From Balamuthia mandrillaris (taxonomy: Eukaryota), in contig JAVKOQ020000007.1 in the NCBI GenBank assembly GCA_031835245.2, forward strand, positions 124,001-188,000: a DNA stretch of 64,000 bases, given 5' to 3'. This document shows, piece by piece, positions 2,304-12,682 of this stretch (positions within the stretch are counted from its first letter, which is position 1; each line of letters begins with the position of its first letter). The translations under genes were made by a program, and so were the position numbers. A model generated the notes under the pieces. It was not told the origin of the DNA. It worked only from the letters and a program-made list of their open reading frames with translations, and ran no database searches.

Positions 2304-5300
2304 AGAAAGAGAATAAATAAGGAACGTCATGGATCAAACAGGTGGGACGACAGAACAAACCCTTGCTTCCTCAGATGTCAGCGCATGGAAATCTGGTGGT
2401 ACGTCCACCTTGGTGGCCACCATTATTTTGGGTACCCCATCTAGCGCGTAACGCTCCACTTCAACATTCCAGTTTCTGAACCAATAGCGCAGGGTAAATC
2501 CAAAAGGAAGAAGGAACAGAAGAAGAGGAAGAAGAGAATAAACAAGAAGAACAAGAGGGGCAAGAAACGAGAACAAGGAGAAAGCTTTGAACAAAGCACA
2601 AGAAGTAGCACGTACCTGACATTTTCAAAGCTTACACGATCAGTTACGTCGTAACACAATAACACACCACAAGTTCCACGGTAGATATAACGGTTATGAT
2701 TGTCGCCATAGAATCTTGGGTTCAGGTATGGTTCCCACTGTCATAAAGAGCAGGTGAGCAGAGAGCAGGTACATAATTTAGAAAGCAGAAGAGAGAGAAC
2801 CATTTGCACTTTGACTTTGTAGCTATCCAAATCAAGTGTACCCATTTTCTAAAGGTAATGATAAAGAATAGAGAAGTTAACAAAACCTTGTGACCTGTTC
2901 TTAAGACCGTCCACTACGCCGTACAGTACACAATACGGTTGCAGAATGACTTAGCGTGTTTTTTGTCCTGCTAAATTGTCCACTATCGCACCTAATTTAG
3001 CAGACAGAGGGCCGGTAGTGGACGGCGAGAGTGTCCGTTGGTTGTAGACAAAAAGTAGCCTTCATCCGGCACTCGCGGTCATATGCCGCCAGAGCATGCG
3101 CTTGAGAGTGCCGTTAAAGCGCTCAACAACGGCTTGTGAGTTTGGTTTGTATGGCTTTGATGTAATGTGTGCAATCCCATTCTCTTCCATGAGCAGATGA
3201 TTGACGAACTCTGCGCCGTTATCTGTTTGCAGGATCTTAGGCTGCTGTTCCGCCAATAATGGCCGCAAGTGTCGGGCCACATTCGCCGCAGTCTTCTTGG
3301 TGATTGGGAACGCCCACGCATACTTGGTGAACACATCGATAGCCGTAAGTATGAAATTGTACCGGTCGTTAAACCCGCGCAGTGCACTGACATCCACGAG
3401 ATCCGCTTGCAGGCGTTCGTGCGGCGCCTTCGCCCGAATAGGTTGTTTCACTGCAATCTTACGAATCGGCTGATGTAATTGGTTAGTATGATTCCGCCGC
3501 AGGTATGCCGCAACATCCCGCCGAGATATGCCGATGAATAACTCCACAGCGCGTTTATATAACTTATCCCGGCCGTATGCCATTGTCGCCGGGCTTGCCA
3601 TCAGTTCGCCGAGCACACGATCGATAGCGCCGGCGGGTACTACAATCCGGCCATCATACTTCGCCACAATGGTGTCTTCTGTTCCTTCTTGTAGCCGGAA
3701 GTGCCGCCACTTATCGGCAAAACCCCGCTGTTCTTTCGGCAGGAGATCCGGCAAAGTATTTGTTTGTAAGTATTCCAGCCCGGCATCATATGCTTCATCT
3801 GTGAATTTGTACTGAGAGTAGTCTTTCATTCTCACAGTATACTATACTAAGGCCGACATAAAACGATTACACGTTATCGGTTGACAGACAATATCGGCCA
3901 GTGGATATAAGAATTTCAATGTAGCCTTCGTCAGAATAGATTATATGACCATAGATTGACGAAGGCTACATATTTCGGGGAAGGTAGATAAACTTAGTAA
4001 ATTGTTATTATTACCTCTTCTTCTGTGCTTTGCCGCAAGAAGGCTACTCTCTGGCCAAAAAAATATTTACATTGATGTATGCTTACTACCGCCGCCAGAT
4101 TTACATCATTCGCAGTCCCTTACCGGACTGTTTCTTCTTCATTGAGGCGCCTAGAAAGCTATCAAACTGTGCGCGACTCTTTGGTGTTGGCTTCTTTGTT
4201 GCTTTGGCACTTGGCTTACTCTTTGCCGGCTTCTTCTTACCGGACCCGATCATTCGCATACCACTGCCAGACTTCACAGTGCTACGCACGTTGGCTCCGC
4301 CAACCCCCAACAACTCGCGCACTTTGCCTTTCGCAGTGGACTTCGCACTATCAGCTAGTTGTTCGATCTTGCCGGTTGCAATAGGTTTGATAACGCCTAA
4401 CAATTCCTTTCCCAAAGTACCAACTAATCCTTTAGGATTCAGCGCATTCTTGCCTTTTCTTATTAACTTCTTCAGGAAGCCCCCGCGCTGTAAGTGCGCC
4501 GGACCATACCTGTGTAGGTTTCTACGGTCTATCAACATTGTTTTCGCCGGTTTCACTAAGTATTATACTACAGGCGACATAAAAACAGATCATGTAAAAT
4601 AATCCCGCACAATAGCTTCATTGGCCGCTGTTGGCTCCTGATCGAACACAGTGATGATATCTGCCGGCGATCTACCGGCGTCTCTTTGCTGAATGTAGAG
4701 GACACAGTAATAGCCGCAGAGAACTGTTTTGTCCGTTTGTGTCTGTGTTGAAGGATACAATATTGTGCGCTTGGGTGCAATCCGCCGCAGAAATCGTTCG
4801 AGTTCTGGTGGTGGCACTACTCCGTATGAATCATAGTACTCAACGAATGGGCTGCTCTTCTCGCAATATACAGCGACCCAATGCGAACCCGGTTGCGAGC
4901 GTTTGTCATAGTTGAAGATAAAACTCGCCGGTAAGTTGATTTCTTTTGTCTTCACCTTCTTGGCTTCATCACGGGCAAACACGCCGGCAAATGAAGGCGA
5001 ATCAACCAACATTTCTGTCAACTCAAAGTTGCTCAGAGCGTGGAACCTTTTTTTTTACTGCATTTGCCGCATCCACCGGCTTGCGAGCCCATTGTGTATC
5101 CTAGACGTAATCCTCTGCCTTTCCTTGGCTTTATCTTTCTTCTCACATTACCCTTGCCCGCATTTCCAGTCCCTTTGGGACGTCGAGCACCCGACCCAAA
5201 CAGTTTACCCAATGCGCCGGTTGCCGTATCAATGCCTTTATCAATTAATTTATCAGCAACACCCGCGAGAATCTATTAAAGGCCACTAATACTGGTAAGA

Positions 5301-8300
5301 ACCCACCAACTTGTGGCCGCATCTTGGTCAACTGTGTTTTGCTAAGCCGCAATACTAATCCCCGGTTATCTTTCGCCGCACGCTTTAGCTTCTTCGCCTG
5401 TGTTTTCGTAAGCAGCAGGGCGGCATTAGGTTCAGCTTTCAGTTGTTTTCTTGTGAGTCGAATGTTGGCGCCATGTTGCGCCTTGATAGCCCTCCCTGTG
5501 GGCTTCTGTTGTTGTTCGCTGAGGAAAATCGGTATGTTGTTGTAGTTCGCAGACATTGTTGTTGTATGCGTTGAGAATACACAGTATACTATACCCGACA
5601 AAAAAAATATTGGATTGTGATATTTAGCGGCGATCACAGAGGATTTGCAGACGCTCTCCATCCCCTTTATAATCGAGCTCAGCCTCCGCCTCAACAACTG
5701 CTAACACGACATAGGAAGTAGGTAAAGCATGCGTGCCAATAGTGGCGCCTGGTGTGAACTCAAGGACCATATCCGCAGCAGTTTCATATGAGAATGCGGC
5801 ACGGTCTCCCTTGCTGTATCCGCAATCGAATACAAAGATAGGGTATATGTTTTTGAAGTCTTCATAGGTGACGATACTACCAGACTCCGTATCATTACAA
5901 TGTCTTCCAGCTTGCAAGAAAGATCTGTACAATCGGATATAGTTTTCGTTAGAAGCATGGAAGAAAGGTGCGTACTCAGTCTTGGGCACAGGTTTGCCGT
6001 TAACCATCAGCCGCATATTCTGCATATTCAGAGTATCATATACTGCCTTGTTGATGTTCTGCACGGCTTGCCTAGTGCCGGACAACCGTGCGTTATCTTG
6101 GAACACGACATAAACGCGCTTTGGCTTACGAAGATTGCTACTAAGCAGGAATCTTTGCCGGCCAGAACCACTCATAGGTGAGCTCTGGATAACAAACAGG
6201 TCATTGTAGACGACAGTCTTAGTGGCACCCGCTGCGAGCTGTTTATCCAGCATAGTTTGTACAGAGAGAGAAGCCTGCAATTGAGGAATCCATAAGTTCA
6301 GTTCATCAACTTTGATACGCAAATCATCAATAGTTGCTGTGCCGTGCCTGTTGTTCCTTGGATAGCCAAATTATGTCTGTTGAGAACCAAAGCCAAAGTA
6401 TGACTAGTGCCGCGCCAGACAGATTTGTGATGATACCAGAAGCGGCAAACATCAGCAATAGGTAAGAGTAGAGTGTGAGTAGCACTTGCAAGGTTTTTAT
6501 CGGCCCTGATCTTAAATGATTCAGAATACTTTGAATTTCTTTCAGTTAGCTCTGTGCCGTTATCATTGAACTCCTTTATTTCTACATCAGCACCAGTATA
6601 TGCCTCACGATAGAAACCAGTTCGGGAGCCTAGAGACCGGAGATTGTCTTCACTCCAACAGACCAGATTCATAACATTTGCGGCCACACCAACGGATGTC
6701 ACGTCGCTAACTGTTTTGTTATCAATACTCCATTTGACACGCTCGAAGAGATGCCAGCCGCCGTTAGTAAGAGCCGCCACATGACCAGCAGTCGCAACGC
6801 CGGCGGTTGTGGTAAGTGCAGTGCCATTGGATTGAGTTATGCTACATTTCACTTCCAAATATGCCTCGTTAATCAGCAGCCATGAGGACTTATCGTTCAC
6901 ACGAATAAGGATCTCACTGGTTGGCACGCCGGTGGAAGTGCCACTAGTGGTATAAGGATATCTGACGTCTTCACGATAGGTGGTAGTCTCATCAACGACA
7001 TCGCTGCTGAAGAGATCCCACTCTTGGGTCATTCTCGGGTCGAGTTGTTTCACGGACATTGTTTACTTTACTGAATGCAGGTACTATACTAAAGCAGCCA
7101 ACAAAGAAAAAAATCGTAATATTTACAGGTAGGCTTACCCAACTCACCCAAGCGGGCAACAATGCTGCGGGTGGCAGTGTTAATATCTTCTTCTGTTATA
7201 TCCGCGTGGCTTGTCTTACCGGCTTCAACCATCCGCAGGTAGACTTGATAGCCAACGTTAAGTATTTCACAAAATCACGCTTGGCTTCACGCCGAGGGCA
7301 TTCAAGATATATGCTTGTTTGCTGCCGGCTTCATCAAACACATGCTTCTTTTTATGCGGCTTCTGGATATGGTTGGAGAACATAATCGTTTTGAGTTGCC
7401 ACACAGTAAGGTTTAATTTCTCACATATTTCATTATTGCAAAGGTTCTGCCGGCATAATTCCCGGACTTGATCAATAATTTCCGTCATCTTTGCTCTGAA
7501 CTAATACACACTATACCAGACATAAAAAAATCAATAAATAAATAATTATTGAAAGCCCGCGCCATATACCACATAGTCTATCTTTGCGGCTAAGTCTGTT
7601 GCAAGTTTAGCAAGGCCTCGGATACGCGGGTGGCCCTTCAATAGTTGTCCTGCGTCCTGAATAATGAAGTTCTTTAACTCTGCTGTTAGCATTCCGTTGG
7701 CCGCAAGTATGTCATGTATGAACAGTTGGCAATTGTATCTAGTGGCACTATACAGCCACATCCGGCGTTCTCCCACGGCTTTCAAAGTGCGGGTAAGCAT
7801 TGCGGCAAGCGTTGGCCGGCCTCTCACATTAACCTGCATTGCGCCGCCATTATGCGGGTGTAGGTCTGCTTCACTGGCCAGCCGAGCGCTTACCACTTGA
7901 TTCTTCTCAAGCCGGATAACTTCGCCGGTTTGGAGCCGAAGAACAAGATACAAATGATATAGATTATCGTAATTCAACTTGCGCTGCATTCGGGATAAGT
8001 CTCCTAGTGTTAGGATATTGCCAAGAGTAGTTATTGCTTGTTGGATTGGGCTTCGCACAACGTACATTGAAGTAATCACCGTGTTTCCTTTGGGTTCCAC
8101 AAGCCGGCGGGTTGCCGGTGGAGCATTCAACCTGAGGCCGAACATCTGCCGCAGTGTTGTCTTCACTGCATTGTAATTATCAACGAGACCTTCGCCTTCC
8201 TGTAGGTTAGTTGGATGATTTAGTAGTAGCGATTGCTTGGAATTACTCGCTTTTTTTTTAACCTGCCACCACGCACAGATAGGAACTTCGACTTCCTTGC

Positions 8301-11300
8301 GCCACAGCTTCCGCACTTTGTTAACTGATATCGCCGGCCGTTTGCCGCTACTTTCACAATTGGTTTGCCGGAGTCGGCCGTCTTTCGTTTACAACGGGGA
8401 CAGTACGTAGTCATTGTTGTTCACTTTTTCTTTGTCTGGTATACTATAGGAGTGAGAAAACCAACGAACGAAAAATAAATGACTGATTACAACATTGGGC
8501 AATGGCATATTGTTATCAACACTAATAAGAAGGTTGAGAACACGCCAGAGAGCCGCCGGCTTGTGCGGAAGTTTACGCGGGTTATACAGGATGTGTTCTC
8601 GGAGGAGAACGCAGATGATATGCTTAGAATATTCCAACGCGGGAAGAACCGTGATCCAATCTATTCAATCCAACTAACTTCATCAATTGAGTGGAAATCA
8701 GGCCGGCAAAAGCGGCTGCATGCGCATATTCTTATTTTCATTACGTTTGCCAAAGACAGAAGCTGCGGTTGACATATGACCGGCTGCGGGGATCTGTGGA
8801 AGAAGCATTAGGTATACCGATACATTTCAATGCTAAGTTCTTGGATAAGAAACAAACATTAGAGCAAATGCAGCAGAACCAAATCAACTATGTCCTCAAA
8901 GAATACTTAGGCATAGATAGGAAGAAGAAAGAAGAAGGAGAATAATCGAATATTTTTTTGCCAAGATTTATTTGGCGGCTTAAGTATAGTTGGAGTGAAT
9001 GGAGTTCTCGGATGAACAAGTGAGGAAGCTCTTGCAACATATGTTGGATTCCTGGGGTAAACCAGCGAAAGAGGTAAGTGAAGAAGTTGTTGTTGAACCA
9101 GAACCTATTGCGGAACCATTGCCGGCGGTAAAGAAAGCAGTGCGAAAGACAACAGCCGGCAAGAAGGCGCCGGCAAAGAAGAAGGCTCCGGCGAAGAAGG
9201 CGCCGGTTAGGAAAGCCGCAAGTAAGCGAGCTCCGGCGAAGAAGAGTGGTGCTGCGGCGAAAAAAGAGAAGCCAGTAAGTAGACCGCGAGCCGGCGAGTT
9301 ATCCAAGTATGTCTTCCAACATTATGCGGAGGAGTTTGATAGTGATGACGACAATGTAGCCGAGGATGAGAGCGGTGAGGAGGCCGAAGAGTAAGAGGTA
9401 TGTTATTTTTTTGTGCCGGCTGAGAGTAGCCTTTGTTCGGCAAAGCAAGGAGAATAAGAGATAATAACTGTTTATGACTTCTACCGGCCTTCTTCGGTTA
9501 GATGTAGCTTTCGCCAATCTATGGTTATATAATCTGTTCTGACGAAGGCTACATTGAAATTCTTATATCCACTCGCCATATGGCGAAGGCTACATTTATT
9601 GAAAAAAAGATAACCACCCACCATTTATTGAAAAAGTTATGCCCACTACAATAGAAAGCTACAATCACCTATTTGTTCACTGTACCAGCTAAGCTAGTAT
9701 TTGTAGCTTCCGTCGCTGAAGAACATCTTGTCGACTAATTCTTGTTGCAAACCATGGCGTTCCATAGCTCGCCTTCTCACCATCATAGGGTCTTCAGGAC
9801 GAGTCCCCGGCGCCGCTTCTTCCCTCGTAATCTGAGGCGAACTCGGCGGCGAGTGTACTGAGATAGCATCCAACCCGGCGGTAAGAGACTGCATCGGGCT
9901 TGCAGGTTGTGCCGGCCTACCTTCTGGTTCTTCGCCTTCTTCTTCCTCTTCTTCGTGCTTTACTTTCTCTCGTTGAGAAACCAGCGGAGGAACGCTTTCG
10001 TCATCCGGGAGAGGCGCCGCGTCTGGTTCGCCCTCGAAAGCAAACTTAGTGAAGTTATCGGCTTGCGATTCGCTCTCCTCTTCATCGGCTTCTTGCGCCA
10101 CTTGCTCTTCCTTCGTGCGGTCCTCTTCATCTTGTTGCAGGAGATTAACGCCTTTGATCGTCGGGTGAGCGCCGCTCTTCAGGTTCTTATCAAACTCCTT
10201 CCATTGCTCGTGGTTCATCTCTTGGTGTACCATCGCCACAGTCGGTTGCAGGCTAACGTTAGCTAAGCGGATCCTCTTCTTTTCTTTGCCAATGCGCTTC
10301 CAAAAGCTTGCATGCTCCGGGTCTCTGCTAACATAGTCTCGGAACTTGCTGGCATACTTTGTCGTGTAAGTACACCAACTGCACGGCATATAGATGATCG
10401 CTGGGTAGCGCCTAAGATCATTGTAGTAGCTAACATATCGGCGGACCATAGAATGTGAAACTATCGGCGTAGGGCCGCCGCTGAGGAAGATAGCCAGGCT
10501 CCTAGCGCGGGCTGGATCAGTCGTCCTAAGCTTGGCCACTAGCGCCACGTAATACCCAACTTTCGAGGCATAGGACTACTAGACTCCTTGGCAGCAAAAA
10601 CAACAATATTAATCGTGTTGGCCAGAGTTTGCGAATCATTCCTCACCATAGCTAACTTCTTGAAATCCGCCATAATCGCCTCGTCGCTACCCGGATCATC
10701 CTCGAGGGCCGGCGGTACAACGTCCAAATAAGTGATGTCCCCGGCTGCCATTGTACGTTCGACATACTTGTACTGCTCGTTGTACCAGCGCATGAAGTCG
10801 TGGTCGTCGTCGGACATAGCAGCGTGAGAACGTTTCTTCTTGGGCTTTGGCTTGTCTTTCTCACAGGCCTGTTCGATGAGCTCAGGCGTCAATAGGTTCA
10901 GCATATTGTCAATACCGTCGGTGCCGAGGAGTTCGCAAAGCACGCTAAATTCTGCGTCGTTTAACTTGCGGAGCATCTTGAAGATCTCAGCGGCGTTTGC
11001 CTTCTTTCGGCCGACCTGTCGTCCTTCCATATTGTGTGTTGGTTTGGGCTGCGAAAATTCTCCTGTCACAAAAAAGCCACGTGATAAATTTTGGCGACAT
11101 GGGAAACCTCCATTTTTTAGGACTCCTCATAGTTATATATAATTCTTGTCAGGAAAGACAGGACGACGGTCAAAATGGCAGAGGAAACCTGTGCTCCAGC
11201 AAGTGGGCAAACAGCTCATGAAAAGGCGGCTCACATAGCAGGGGCTTACAACACAAAGATAGCAGAGGTTCACACAACCACTTCACTAAAGGTTGCGGAG

Positions 11301-12682
11301 CTGAACCGTGAAGCCTTATTGCGCAGCGCTAAAATCAGTGCGAGAGCAAGATACTTCCAAGGCACGGCTACATTAATAGGTGCAGTTGGAGTGCTTGTAG
11401 GGCTTGTTTATCGATTACGAGAGGAGTCAAGCTCCTTGAAGATGGACCTTGAACACACAAGAAGTGATCTCGAAGGACTGAAGCAAAGATACATACTCTT
11501 GAAGGACCATAGAAGTTTTCCCAAGCCAGAAGAAGACAACAAACCACTTCCTAATGAAAAGGACGTGGAAAACGCTTATCAATAAGCTACCAGTAGTAGC
11601 TTAAAAATAGCCACTTCACTTTGTAGCAACTGTCATCACACCATTCTTCGCCCTCCACAACCGAAGTGTTTTCTCTTTTTCTTTTTTTCTATTAAATTCT
11701 TTTTCCTCTGACCTACTTGTTAATATTAAGACCGTCCACTACGCCGTACAGTACACAATACGGTTGCAGAATGACTTAGCGTGTTTTTTGTCCTGCTAAA
11801 TTGTCCACTATCGCACCTAATTTAGCAGACAGAGTGCCGGTAGTGGACGGCGAGAGTTCTTTCGTCTTTGTCAAGCAAATATTGAGAGGTACGGTCTGCG
11901 TACTGGATCAGGTGGCGAAGCTTGGTGCTGATACGTATCGGTGAATGTGCCATCCTGGAGTCATTCAAAAACAACAAAGCGAGAGAGAGAGAGAGAAGAA
12001 GAAACATGTAAGTTTAAAAACGGAGCTAGATTAATGCGTTGTATTATCATACGTACGATCATCCTTGTGGCTAAAGATGTCTAATAACAAACGGTTGGTG
12101 TAAGTAAGGTAACTGTCAAAAAAAAAACACAGCTTCACGCCAGCACACTAAACAAGAACTATGCGTTTAATGTGGTTTGACATACCTTGCCAACGCCAAG
12201 GTCGCCAATAATTGCCAACTTCACGAGAAAGTCATAATCGCTAGTAGTTCTATCTCGTGGTCTCACATAAGGCCGCAGTCCTTGTTCTGCCCGTGCCTTT
12301 CTGCGTTTCTCTCTTTGTTCAATGAGTCCTTTGCGGTGATCCAAATAGATTTGTTTCCATTGGCCATCGTTGTTGCTAGTTGCCGTCAACTTGGATGGAG
12401 CCACCTTTGCTAGAAATGGTTTCCAAAGTCTTATAGAAAAGACAAAGCAAACAAGTTGGGTATTGAGGCTTAAAAGAGGCGGAGAAGGAAGCTATGACGT
12501 ACATAGGCTCGCTGCCAATGCGACGAAAGTGTTTGCAGACATGGGTTACGTGAAGGAGGTCATTTACACTAGTGAGGAAGCTGAAAGCGTACAATAACAT
12601 CTCGTCTGGAAGCCGGCGAATACGTACGTAAAGAAACCTGTTATACAGCAAAGCAAGAGAGGGAAAGAGAGAGAGAGCGAGG

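Follow-up and report, generated by a model that had tools for sequence, protein, structure and literature searches.

Direct terminal repeats as likely integrase end-units of a defective Polinton-like insertion in Balamuthia mandrillaris

Introduction

Direct terminal repeats with short inverted ends, a DDE integrase, a short target site duplication (TSD) and a possible one-repeat circle are known from LTR retroelements and from IS26-type composites. The locus described here, which lies in a stretch of 64,000 nucleotides of Balamuthia mandrillaris DNA (hereafter the window), raises the question of how an insertion carrying capsid genes came to end in such repeats, as neither a reverse transcriptase nor a tyrosine recombinase was found by Pfam in its 15 main open reading frames (ORFs) and 22 further frames. 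Polinton-like viruses (PLVs) are usually detected by their inverted ends, and searches of this kind would overlook elements whose ends are short and direct; a cryptophyte survey was filtered on TIRs (PMC12220804).

A polymorphic insertion and its terminal repeats

2897..2901, no strand: left TSD in the 5-bp reading, GTTCT (the 6-bp reading reaches 2902); from the empty-site joint
2902..3030, plus: left terminal direct repeat, 129 bp, a branched hairpin with 11-bp arms (2907-2917 / 3015-3025) and a 10-bp stem (2968-3003); from repeat comparison and folding
11727..11855, plus: right terminal direct repeat, 129 bp; from repeat comparison
11856..11860, no strand: right TSD in the 5-bp reading; from flank comparison and the empty-site joint
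2849..11903, minus: predicted intron in a host gene for a Rab-like small GTPase, about 96 nt long without the element that it holds; inferred from splice signals, protein continuity and a Ras match

The element is one polymorphic insertion of 8,954 bp, as seen from the flank duplication and from an empty allele in sequencing runs. The outer flanks of both repeats read GTTCTT and the inner flanks are not duplicated (GTGTCC after the left repeat, TAATAT before the right), in agreement with a preliminary description of this DNA, and the empty allele for which it had proposed a search of the reads is present as a joint 2896->11856, with six letters assignable to either side, in three of four runs from two studies (depth 26.3 in X1 and 9.7 in X2, from one sample, and 8.3 in X8, from the other study). 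In X1, the depths of window-identical contigs (36) and of the empty site (26) add up to about that of the flank (60-66). The earlier claim of a single, probably recent insertion event is thus upheld, the empty allele showing polymorphism, and one insertion only is known, as no second filled site with both ends was found among the matches listed. Since the joint is compatible with a TSD of 3, 4, 5 or 6 bp, the empty site by itself cannot fix the length; two observations favour 5 bp, as had been proposed with 6 bp also fitting: X1 contains another end of this family, where TCTTA, exactly complementary to the left end, comes after the right arm and precedes a different flank, and in the related genome L008 the hairpin arm starts at position 6.

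The two repeats differ at one base (G3010 / T11835), and their identity spans 132 nt (2901-3032 / 11726-11857), which makes the repeat ends ambiguous. Each unit has 11-bp inverted arms at its positions 6-16 and 114-124, 5 nt from each end, and a 10-bp stem at positions 67-76/93-102 with a third GTCCACTA in its loop; this core occurs six times in the window, always within the two repeats (expected 0.94; none of 100 shuffles reaches six). The unit folds more stably than shuffles (z -3.2, -3.4 and -3.9), in a branched fold of about 125 nt, and its ends are not TG..CA. The preliminary description stands in the one-base difference, the arms, the 10-bp stem with its loop core and the lack of TG..CA ends; the small CCGTA/TACGG stem it had also named is present at no more than chance level, one of four different 5-bp inverted pairs in the unit. 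The outer ends of the element are unlike (left TAAGA, right CGAGA, not mirror images), so that an integrase would have to tolerate different outer 5-mers. A search of viral contigs for the arm-gap-arm pattern gave no matches.

Gene content

3062..3829, minus: rve DDE integrase, 255 aa, D143/D203/E236 intact, ending just past the catalytic helix, likely inactive; from Pfam, alignment and tree
4101..4538, minus: basic (K/R-rich) ORF, candidate core protein; from the ORF list, no family found
4590..5054, minus: adenain-like (C5) maturation protease, start region uncertain; Peptidase_C5, E 0.025
5245..5556, minus: core protein of Polinton type with a GGFLP motif, its frame interrupted near 5270; a short-read contig is identical over 5120-7007
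5624..7059, minus: double jelly-roll major capsid protein (MCP), Polinton type, in two frames split near 6300-6330; 324 relatives
7267..7488, minus: small HTH-like ORF; weak match
7546..8130, minus: conserved virophage/PLV gene with a predicted permuted papain (C97/PPPDE-like) fold; from cluster comparison
8220..8414, minus: DUF5679 zinc ribbon, also present in Polintons L015 and L050; domain match
8479..8945, plus: HUH (Rep-like, Y1) endonuclease in two frames split near 8750; HUH profile, with an X2 contig identical over 8571-8882
8999..9394, plus: Histone H1-like lysine/alanine-rich ORF; HC2, 5e-7
9694..11030, minus: two overlapping ORFs of no family, likely one gene split in this copy; at 10574-10615 a diverged copy is shorter by 41 nt
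11175..11585, plus: 136-aa ORF of no family with one hydrophobic stretch; from the ORF list and domain search

The genes lie on both strands. The capsid module is of Polinton type: 31 of 35 aligned MCP members match PF21738, and the protease is 38-41% identical to those of Polintons L006, L038 and L050. The frame break of the MCP also occurs in short-read contigs, and contigs identical to the window exist within the element. Cluster comparison of the C97-like ORF gave 0.95-0.96 to three Preplasmiviricota-rich clusters, with PF05903 on 31% of one further cluster. For pPolB there was no tblastn match with two queries and none by Pfam, and neither the packaging ATPase (five queries) nor the penton (four queries) was matched in the element. 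Nothing of use came from PHROGs, PDB sequence and Rfam searches, from a search with the N-half of the MCP among longer proteins, or from locus scans with the C97-like ORF and with the first HUH alignment; two MCP alignments were too divergent for locus scanning, and two single-sequence AlphaFold models reached pLDDT 33 and 38.

The integrase retains its DDE triad and ends 31 bp from the left repeat, at 255 aa where most full-length relatives have about 340-470 aa, and is likely inactive. In a tree of 32 rows, five others having been removed from the alignment beforehand, it groups (100/100) with integrases of HUH-bearing Polinton-like viruses; the five HUH-labelled rows all lie on one side of a 100/100 branch and the 12 pPolB-labelled rows all on the other. 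The HUH gene has both HUH and YxxK motifs, and a profile of six viral HUH proteins matches its two halves at 3.7e-7 and 5.3e-5, while the Replitron_HUH profile gives E ~0.05 and matches two of five relatives only. The integrase truncation and the gene splits had not appeared in the preliminary description. Read from its sequence, the element is a defective chimeric virus and this copy is non-autonomous, as follows from the truncated integrase and four other split genes, and further moves would need a helper.

The link of the repeat unit to the capsid genes, asserted earlier, is borne out by a diverged copy in X1, where the same genes adjoin a unit that begins at the corresponding position and is left after 14 nt; as this copy is the dominant diverged one in X1, members of the family do not all carry the 129-bp unit in full. 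In the contigs of X3 the host introns are skipped, parts of 8873-11740 are covered and 3001-8872 is not, although contigs cannot rank genes, and the raw RNA run X12 has zero reads even on the host flank and hence says nothing about expression.

Inner hairpins and related viral loci

3055..3071, plus: short motif common to the tails of both inner inverted repeats, which gives the truncated integrase its stop codon; from GTAGCCTT occurrences
3891..4065, plus: inner inverted repeat, left copy, with a hairpin at 3919-3971 (15-bp perfect stem, 23-nt TTATAT loop), candidate HUH origin; from repeat search and folding
9404..9581, minus: inner inverted repeat, right copy, whose hairpin has two mismatches; from repeat search and folding

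Inside the element lies an inverted pair of hairpins, absent from the preliminary description, with 79% identity over 180 nt and 93% over a 76-nt core (fold z -8.4). The sequence GTAGCCTT occurs at 3055, 3921 and 9426 and at four minus-strand places, and nowhere else in the window. A promoter-like motif is found nine times within the element and not once outside; it differs from the TATATA motif of Asfarviridae relatives, so that no helper virus can be named.

The preliminary description had assigned the terminal repeat two roles, integrase att site and origin or resolution site. The first fits, because a DDE integrase is encoded within the element, and the 129-bp repeat is likely the end recognised by its rve integrase family. 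As to the second, the inner pair looks more origin-like than the terminal repeat and is the better candidate, since its anatomy is closer to that of the hairpins of HUH-bearing relatives.

Dispersed non-coding hairpin repeats were seen in 5/6 HUH loci, 0/12 pPolB loci and 1/9 unlabelled loci of at least 7 kb, a count that takes each contig once and only loci of 7 kb or more, and whose loci are not independent (L102-L104 are kin, and the pPolB set includes several near copies and fragments). The pPolB locus L015 has a plain 123-bp TIR only. L008, a complete genome of 19,322 bp with 141-bp TIRs and six hairpin units, has hairpins at both TIR ends. Its first letters are 5'-TAAAG and its hairpin arm runs from position 6, just as the element in the window opens with 5'-TAAGA and has an arm from position 6; the ends of L008 are inverted, not direct. 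The prediction that L008 encodes HUH failed (no HUH match, best E 0.21), and hairpin units therefore track the integrase clade, not strictly HUH; they are usual at ends and module borders in this clade, although the dispersed unit was not seen in the partial loci L105 (HUH) and L013 (same integrase clade). In G001 (20,372 bp) and the L104 contig (21,908 bp), both with HUH and rve, direct terminal overlaps lie in tandem direct copies of their own hairpin unit, as expected from head-to-tail multimers or circles, which is weak evidence because repeats make assemblers break and circularise contigs. The 24-nt loop of L104 is found in either orientation on 25-bp stems of identical sequence, within flanks that keep the same direction.

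Origin of the direct repeats

The reading that we prefer, and to which we give about an even chance, is that the repeats are the ends of a defective Polinton-like insertion, likely its integrase end-units, and have the same direction because the piece was cut from a head-to-tail multimer; that this multimer arose by rolling circle is held with the same evenly balanced confidence. A circular form with one end-unit would be copied by rolling circle, with the HUH protein nicking at the inner hairpins and helicase and polymerase supplied from outside (host, helper element or giant virus). On this multimer, the integrase would grip the 11-bp arms that face outward on two consecutive units, cut 5 nt outside each arm and insert the piece into host DNA cut with a stagger of 5 bp, and cutting at successive units would yield identical direct repeats without reverse transcription. 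Recombination between the repeats would free a one-unit circle and leave a solo unit; among the matches listed, which for the sample holding the insertion are contigs only, no circle, multimer or solo unit was found. The defective copy would depend on related copies in trans, given its truncated integrase, its split capsid, core, HUH and no-family genes and the ATPase and penton that were not found, but the single mismatch in 129 bp also fits an element that decayed once inserted, so that the copy need not have been broken already when it was mobilised.

A composite transposon, which we consider unlikely, would have formed when a MITE-like unit, the remnant of a TIR-bounded relative with its two ends joined inside to inside, landed twice in a resident virus, once near the integrase gene, and an integrase acting in trans moved the segment, as in IS-flanked composites. 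The unit does resemble two outward-facing ends, a family end with the arm and TCTTA is present in X1, the integrase stops close to the left unit, and the ATPase, penton and replicase genes are absent, as though the segment had been lifted out. However, there is no sign of a high-copy unit (the X1 contigs that match both places number four to six, and bin 3001-3367 has no depth in X8 or X3, contigs showing presence and not absence), the diverged copy begins the unit at the same place with the same genes adjoining, and hairpin units at such borders are normal for the integrase clade. That repeat collapse during assembly joined a virus contig into a host contig is hardly probable at all: no single contig crosses either filled junction among the matches listed, yet the duplicated flank equals the empty site exactly, the depths add up, and there are window-identical short-read contigs within the element.

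The branched fold, the flip/flop loops of L104, an X1 contig in which TAAGA is joined to the other arm, the hairpins at both TIR ends of L008 and the terminal palindromes of non-pPolB Halocafeteria elements (10.64898/2026.07.28.741278) would also suit a linear genome with parvovirus- or poxvirus-like hairpin ends. The unit would then be an opened terminal hairpin, and flip/flop resolution with recombination of the ends would have given both ends the same orientation before integration, without a circle. This is quite unlikely, as a loop flip keeps TAAGA..TCTTA as outer ends, yet the right end is CGAGA, so that a whole unit with unlike tails is directly repeated; moreover, the inner flanks have no common inverted segment, and the closing stem is just 11 bp. 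Very improbable, finally, is a supply of the missing enzyme in trans, either by a retroelement copying in TRIM/LARD-like fashion or by a recombinase integrating a circle. The unit size is within the range of TRIM repeats, but TG..CA ends are lacking, no primer-binding site or purine tract is obvious by eye at the expected places, and the genes occupy both strands. A tyrosine recombinase is documented for the direct-repeat PLVs of Tyrannomonas (PMC12747079), but the empty site here has no copy of the unit, so that the repeat is not a crossover core. Against both variants stand the true target duplication and the failure to find either enzyme in the frames of the element.

A wider proposal is offered tentatively: a DNA-only LTR system, in which a lineage of eukaryotic capsid viruses with an HUH rolling-circle initiator and a retroviral-type integrase would regenerate identical direct repeats without reverse transcription, multi-copy hairpin units (flip/flop isomers) serving as ends, origins and module borders. 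If true, it would also explain the swaps of capsid and replication modules between Polintons and Zoravirus-like viruses. The hairpin units of related viruses provide a concrete starting point for studying how modules are shuffled among these viruses.

Comparison with known systems

The locus matters for how pPolB-less, rve-encoding viruses make integrase-ready ends, and its exact ends, TSD, empty allele and candidate origin make both enzymes testable on defined substrates. Compared with LTR retroelements and IS26-type units, the element has no TG..CA ends and has a double jelly-roll capsid, and no reverse transcriptase was found in it. With Mavericks/Polintons (Polintoviricetes) it shares the MCP (PF21738), core protein, adenain protease, DUF5679, rve and a 5-6-bp TSD, whereas its ends are direct and not inverted, with only the 11-bp subterminal arms, its integrase is of another clade, and pPolB, ATPase and penton were not found.

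HUH+RVE Polinton-like viruses (Zoravirus VC102 and VC218) are described as having no pPolB and terminal repeats, direct or inverted, in their complete genomes (Bellas and Sommaruga, 10.64898/2026.06.19.733378); 'hairpin' and 'palindrom' are absent from the available main text. The element is like them in combining rve integrase and HUH, in the absence of pPolB and in its integrase clade, Zoravirus-like loci being assigned here by gene content only and not by the profiles of that paper. It differs in having a Polinton-type MCP, core protein and protease and in being integrated, and ATPase, penton and D5 helicase were not found; the NCLDV-related MCP and ATPase are not seen in the window, whose MCP profile matches none of five HUH loci. 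In Halocafeteria virophages and PLVs, palindromes adjoin the TSD and are linked to replication other than by pPolB and to certain RVE integrases, but lie inside TIRs, and neither 'direct repeat' nor 'HUH' occurs in that text (10.64898/2026.07.28.741278). Replitrons, as far as the accessible text goes, are eukaryotic HUH elements with short direct terminal repeats, most of which make no TSD, and no capsid or integrase is reported there (PMC10288648); the window has both a TSD and an integrase, so that HUH would not be its sole transposase.

Tyrannomonas regina PLV-56 and PLV-78 are integrated, complete elements of about 20 kb whose direct terminal repeats (246 and 287 bp) are identical; both have a non-canonical rve integrase and no pPolB, PLV-78 has a 5-bp TSD (GGGGG, Table S2), and their repeats are ascribed by the authors to an encoded tyrosine recombinase (PMC12747079). 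The element is likewise integrated, with identical direct repeats, rve and no pPolB, and differs in its HUH gene, its proven empty site and the inverted arms inside each repeat, a tyrosine recombinase not being found. Direct-repeat PLVs are already known from the literature, there with a tyrosine recombinase.

Insertion site and target duplication

The element, 8,954 bp long and very probably a defective Polinton-like virus (PLV) whose repeats are its mobile ends, is laid out as follows:

2902-11855, the whole insertion
2902-3030, left terminal repeat (the unit)
11727-11855, right terminal repeat, in direct orientation
3891-4065, left inner repeat
9404-9581, right inner repeat, inverted relative to the left

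The insertion is real and polymorphic. A Rab-like gene holds it, in a predicted intron of 96 nt. The empty allele, for which the preliminary description suggested looking, is present in public contigs of three of four sequencing runs, from two studies, as a joint from 2896 to 11856 at which six letters fit either side and which holds no copy of the unit. Its depth is 26.3 in run X1 and 9.7 in X2, both from one sample, possibly the one from which the window derives, and 8.3 in X8, from the other study. In X1, window-identical contigs inside the element (5120-7007, 9592-10143) have depth 36 and the host flank 60-66, so that filled and empty depths roughly sum to flank depth, with the caveat that contig depth is not copy number. 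The joint bears out the earlier view that the whole element inserted as one event; GTTCTT is indeed common to both outer flanks, and the inner flanks share nothing.

The target site duplication (TSD) had been put at 5 bp, with 6 bp also fitting; both stand, but the joint alone allows 3 or 4 bp as well. A 5-bp TSD, with the element at 2902-11855, is favoured because the arms are then symmetric in the unit, because in an X1 contig TCTTA, which complements the left end, follows the right arm and leads into unrelated flank, and because the genome of a relative (L008) begins with TAAAG and likewise has its hairpin arm from position 6.

Terminal and inner repeats

The terminal repeats, 129 nt each, differ at a single position, as first described, and their identity spans 132 nt over ambiguous edges. 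Each unit has 11-bp inverted arms, the first starting at unit position 6 and the second ending at 124, and a 10-bp inner stem whose loop carries a third GTCCACTA; these features were found again in both units, whereas the small CCGTA/TACGG stem, although present, is at chance level (four such 5-bp pairs in the unit). All six occurrences of GTCCACTA in the window fall within the two terminal repeats (0.94 expected), and against 200 shuffled versions the unit folds more strongly (z -3.2 to -3.9).

The inner repeats are 79% identical over 180 nt and flank the block of capsid and HUH (Rep-like nicking endonuclease) genes. In the left one, a stem of 15 perfectly paired bp closes a 23-nt loop (z -8.4), and stems of at least 14 bp with loops of at most 30 nt are absent from 52 kb of host DNA. 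Its tail motif recurs beside the left terminal repeat, where it provides the early stop of the integrase.

Among the matches listed, X1 also contains diverged copies of the element (depth 83-163). Of these, one begins the unit at the same position and next to the same genes but departs into different sequence after 14 nt; one has an inner-repeat tail joined towards 10114; and in one, 11066-11142 is inverted and 10574-10615 is shorter by 41 nt. The dominant diverged copy has intergenic 11042-11172, which separates the divergently oriented ORFs at 11030 and 11175, in inverted orientation.

Gene content

The DDE integrase, of rve type (D143, D203, E236), breaks off as soon as the catalytic helix is complete, leaving 31 bp to the left repeat, and aligned full-length relatives extend 100-200 residues further. 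Among named proteins, the nearest to the integrase (70%) and to the HUH protein (82%) belong to Balamuthia mandrillaris, which makes this amoeba, or one of its kin, the likely host. The major capsid protein (MCP), a double jelly-roll in two frames, has 324 relatives, with PF21738 on 31 of 35 aligned members; for it, the adenain protease, the GGFLP core protein and the DUF5679 ribbon, the gene set of the nearest loci (L015, L050, L069) is that of Polintons, pPolB being seen in L015 and L050. The HUH gene is split over two frames; the Atlas indicates REP_ORF2-G2P and 117-like clusters, and a profile from six viral HUH proteins, the window's own left out, matches both halves (3.7e-7, 5.3e-5). Its unbroken relative (P0055), a public protein called 'DksA', is an HUH endonuclease fused with the H1-like ORF, and the name is likely a misannotation. 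The element also carries a virophage/PLV gene with a predicted C97-like fold, an H1-like ORF and three ORFs without recognised family. Thirteen queries for pPolB, D5 helicase, ATPase and penton gave no match within it, and Pfam found neither reverse transcriptase (RT) nor tyrosine recombinase (YR) among its ORFs and further frames.

Where the MCP, core and HUH genes are broken, short-read contigs equal the window with no alternative letters, apart from a single gap in the X2 contig over 5120-7007, and the breaks are therefore not long-read errors. The motif RGTATAVT, likely a shared viral promoter, precedes genes at nine places in the element and is absent from the remaining 55 kb of the window.

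The element has 20 GCCGGC sites, in all codon frames (1.5 expected from base content), versus four in 52 kb of host DNA; CCGG density is five times the host's at equal GC, and the GCCGGC excess is absent from 12 related loci. Run X3 is likely RNA, since its contigs skip host introns. Its contig at 11284-11576, over the 136-aa membrane ORF, has depth 376, versus about 14 for the host gene, and among the matches listed none covers 3001-8872, which weakly suggests expression of the right arm and silence of the capsid genes. Host positions 405-1658 hold an F-box and ankyrin-repeat gene with GCPW repeats, of a kind found in amoebal giant viruses.

Hairpin units in related viruses

When 32 integrase rows are placed in a midpoint-rooted tree, where two of the HUH rows have long branches, a 100/100 branch parts five HUH-labelled rows, including the window, from 12 pPolB-labelled rows. 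Among 27 loci of at least 7 kb, dispersed non-coding repeats occur in 5/6 HUH, 0/12 pPolB and 1/9 unlabelled loci (Fisher p 0.0007, overstated because the loci are related and many are fragmentary); one pPolB locus has a plain terminal inverted repeat (TIR).

Such dispersed repeats form hairpins, and those of L103 and L104 combine perfect 15-25-bp stems with 19-24-nt loops around a TTATAT core, resembling the window's inner hairpin. L104 has the loop in both orientations within same-direction flanks; its tandem hairpin array at 5660-6437 has identical 25-bp stems with a 24-nt loop in either orientation, a flip/flop signature in a PLV. The L104 contig and another genome (G001) close by direct overlaps lying in tandem copies of their own hairpin unit. 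G001 (L099 189-373, 18215-18412) has a 190-bp branched hairpin three times, twice in tandem at the assembly junction and once inverted, in the gap between the integrase and HUH genes, which converge; inverted units thus stand on both sides of the integrase-ATPase pair.

L008 comes from a complete genome (L109; 19,322 bp), which has 141-bp TIRs and, at module borders, a 65-75-bp hairpin unit in six copies; neither HUH nor pPolB was found in it. The units therefore track the integrase clade more closely than they track HUH, and inverted ends are possible in this clade. Both points count against the mechanism favoured here.

Proposed mechanism and alternatives

DDE integrases are established to leave short TSDs (a TSD also appears in PMC12220804), and HUH enzymes to nick hairpin loops (PMC11253617). 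A one-unit circle would be replicated by rolling circle, started by HUH at the inner hairpins; the integrase would hold two consecutive units of the multimer by their outward arms and insert unit-genome-unit with a 5-bp stagger, and recombination between the terminal repeats would complete the cycle. As a whole, this mechanism has about an even chance.

A composite of two MITE-like units is rather unlikely. The repeats might instead be resolved hairpin ends of a linear genome, which is somewhat less probable again. Recombinase or retro routes, with neither enzyme found, are very improbable, and an assembly artefact, to be weighed against the empty allele and the matching short-read contigs, is hardly credible.

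Comparison with known systems

The accessible part of Bellas and Sommaruga (10.64898/2026.06.19.733378) covers metagenomic HUH+RVE viruses with direct or inverted repeats, and hairpins are not described there. Excerpts of PMC12747079 present two integrated PLVs with direct repeats of 246 and 287 bp, termed rare, a tyrosine recombinase plus a non-canonical rve, and a 5-bp TSD listed for one. Palindromes within TIRs of non-pPolB elements (10.64898/2026.07.28.741278) and replication modules flanked by internal repeats (10.64898/2026.10.13.758929) appear in the available portions of two further reports; those of PMC10120064 and PMC11702301 contain neither 'Balamuthia' nor 'direct repeat'.

In literature where subscription papers were sparsely covered, no report was found that describes this element or any rve-only virus which carries HUH and is integrated with direct hairpin ends. 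At this one locus, the element is a real, polymorphic, defective chimeric PLV with LTR-like direct ends, RT and YR not being found among its frames. If the proposed cycle were true, the locus would exemplify a DNA-only LTR cycle. Its ends may resemble LTRs, IS26 units, TRIMs and parvovirus ends.
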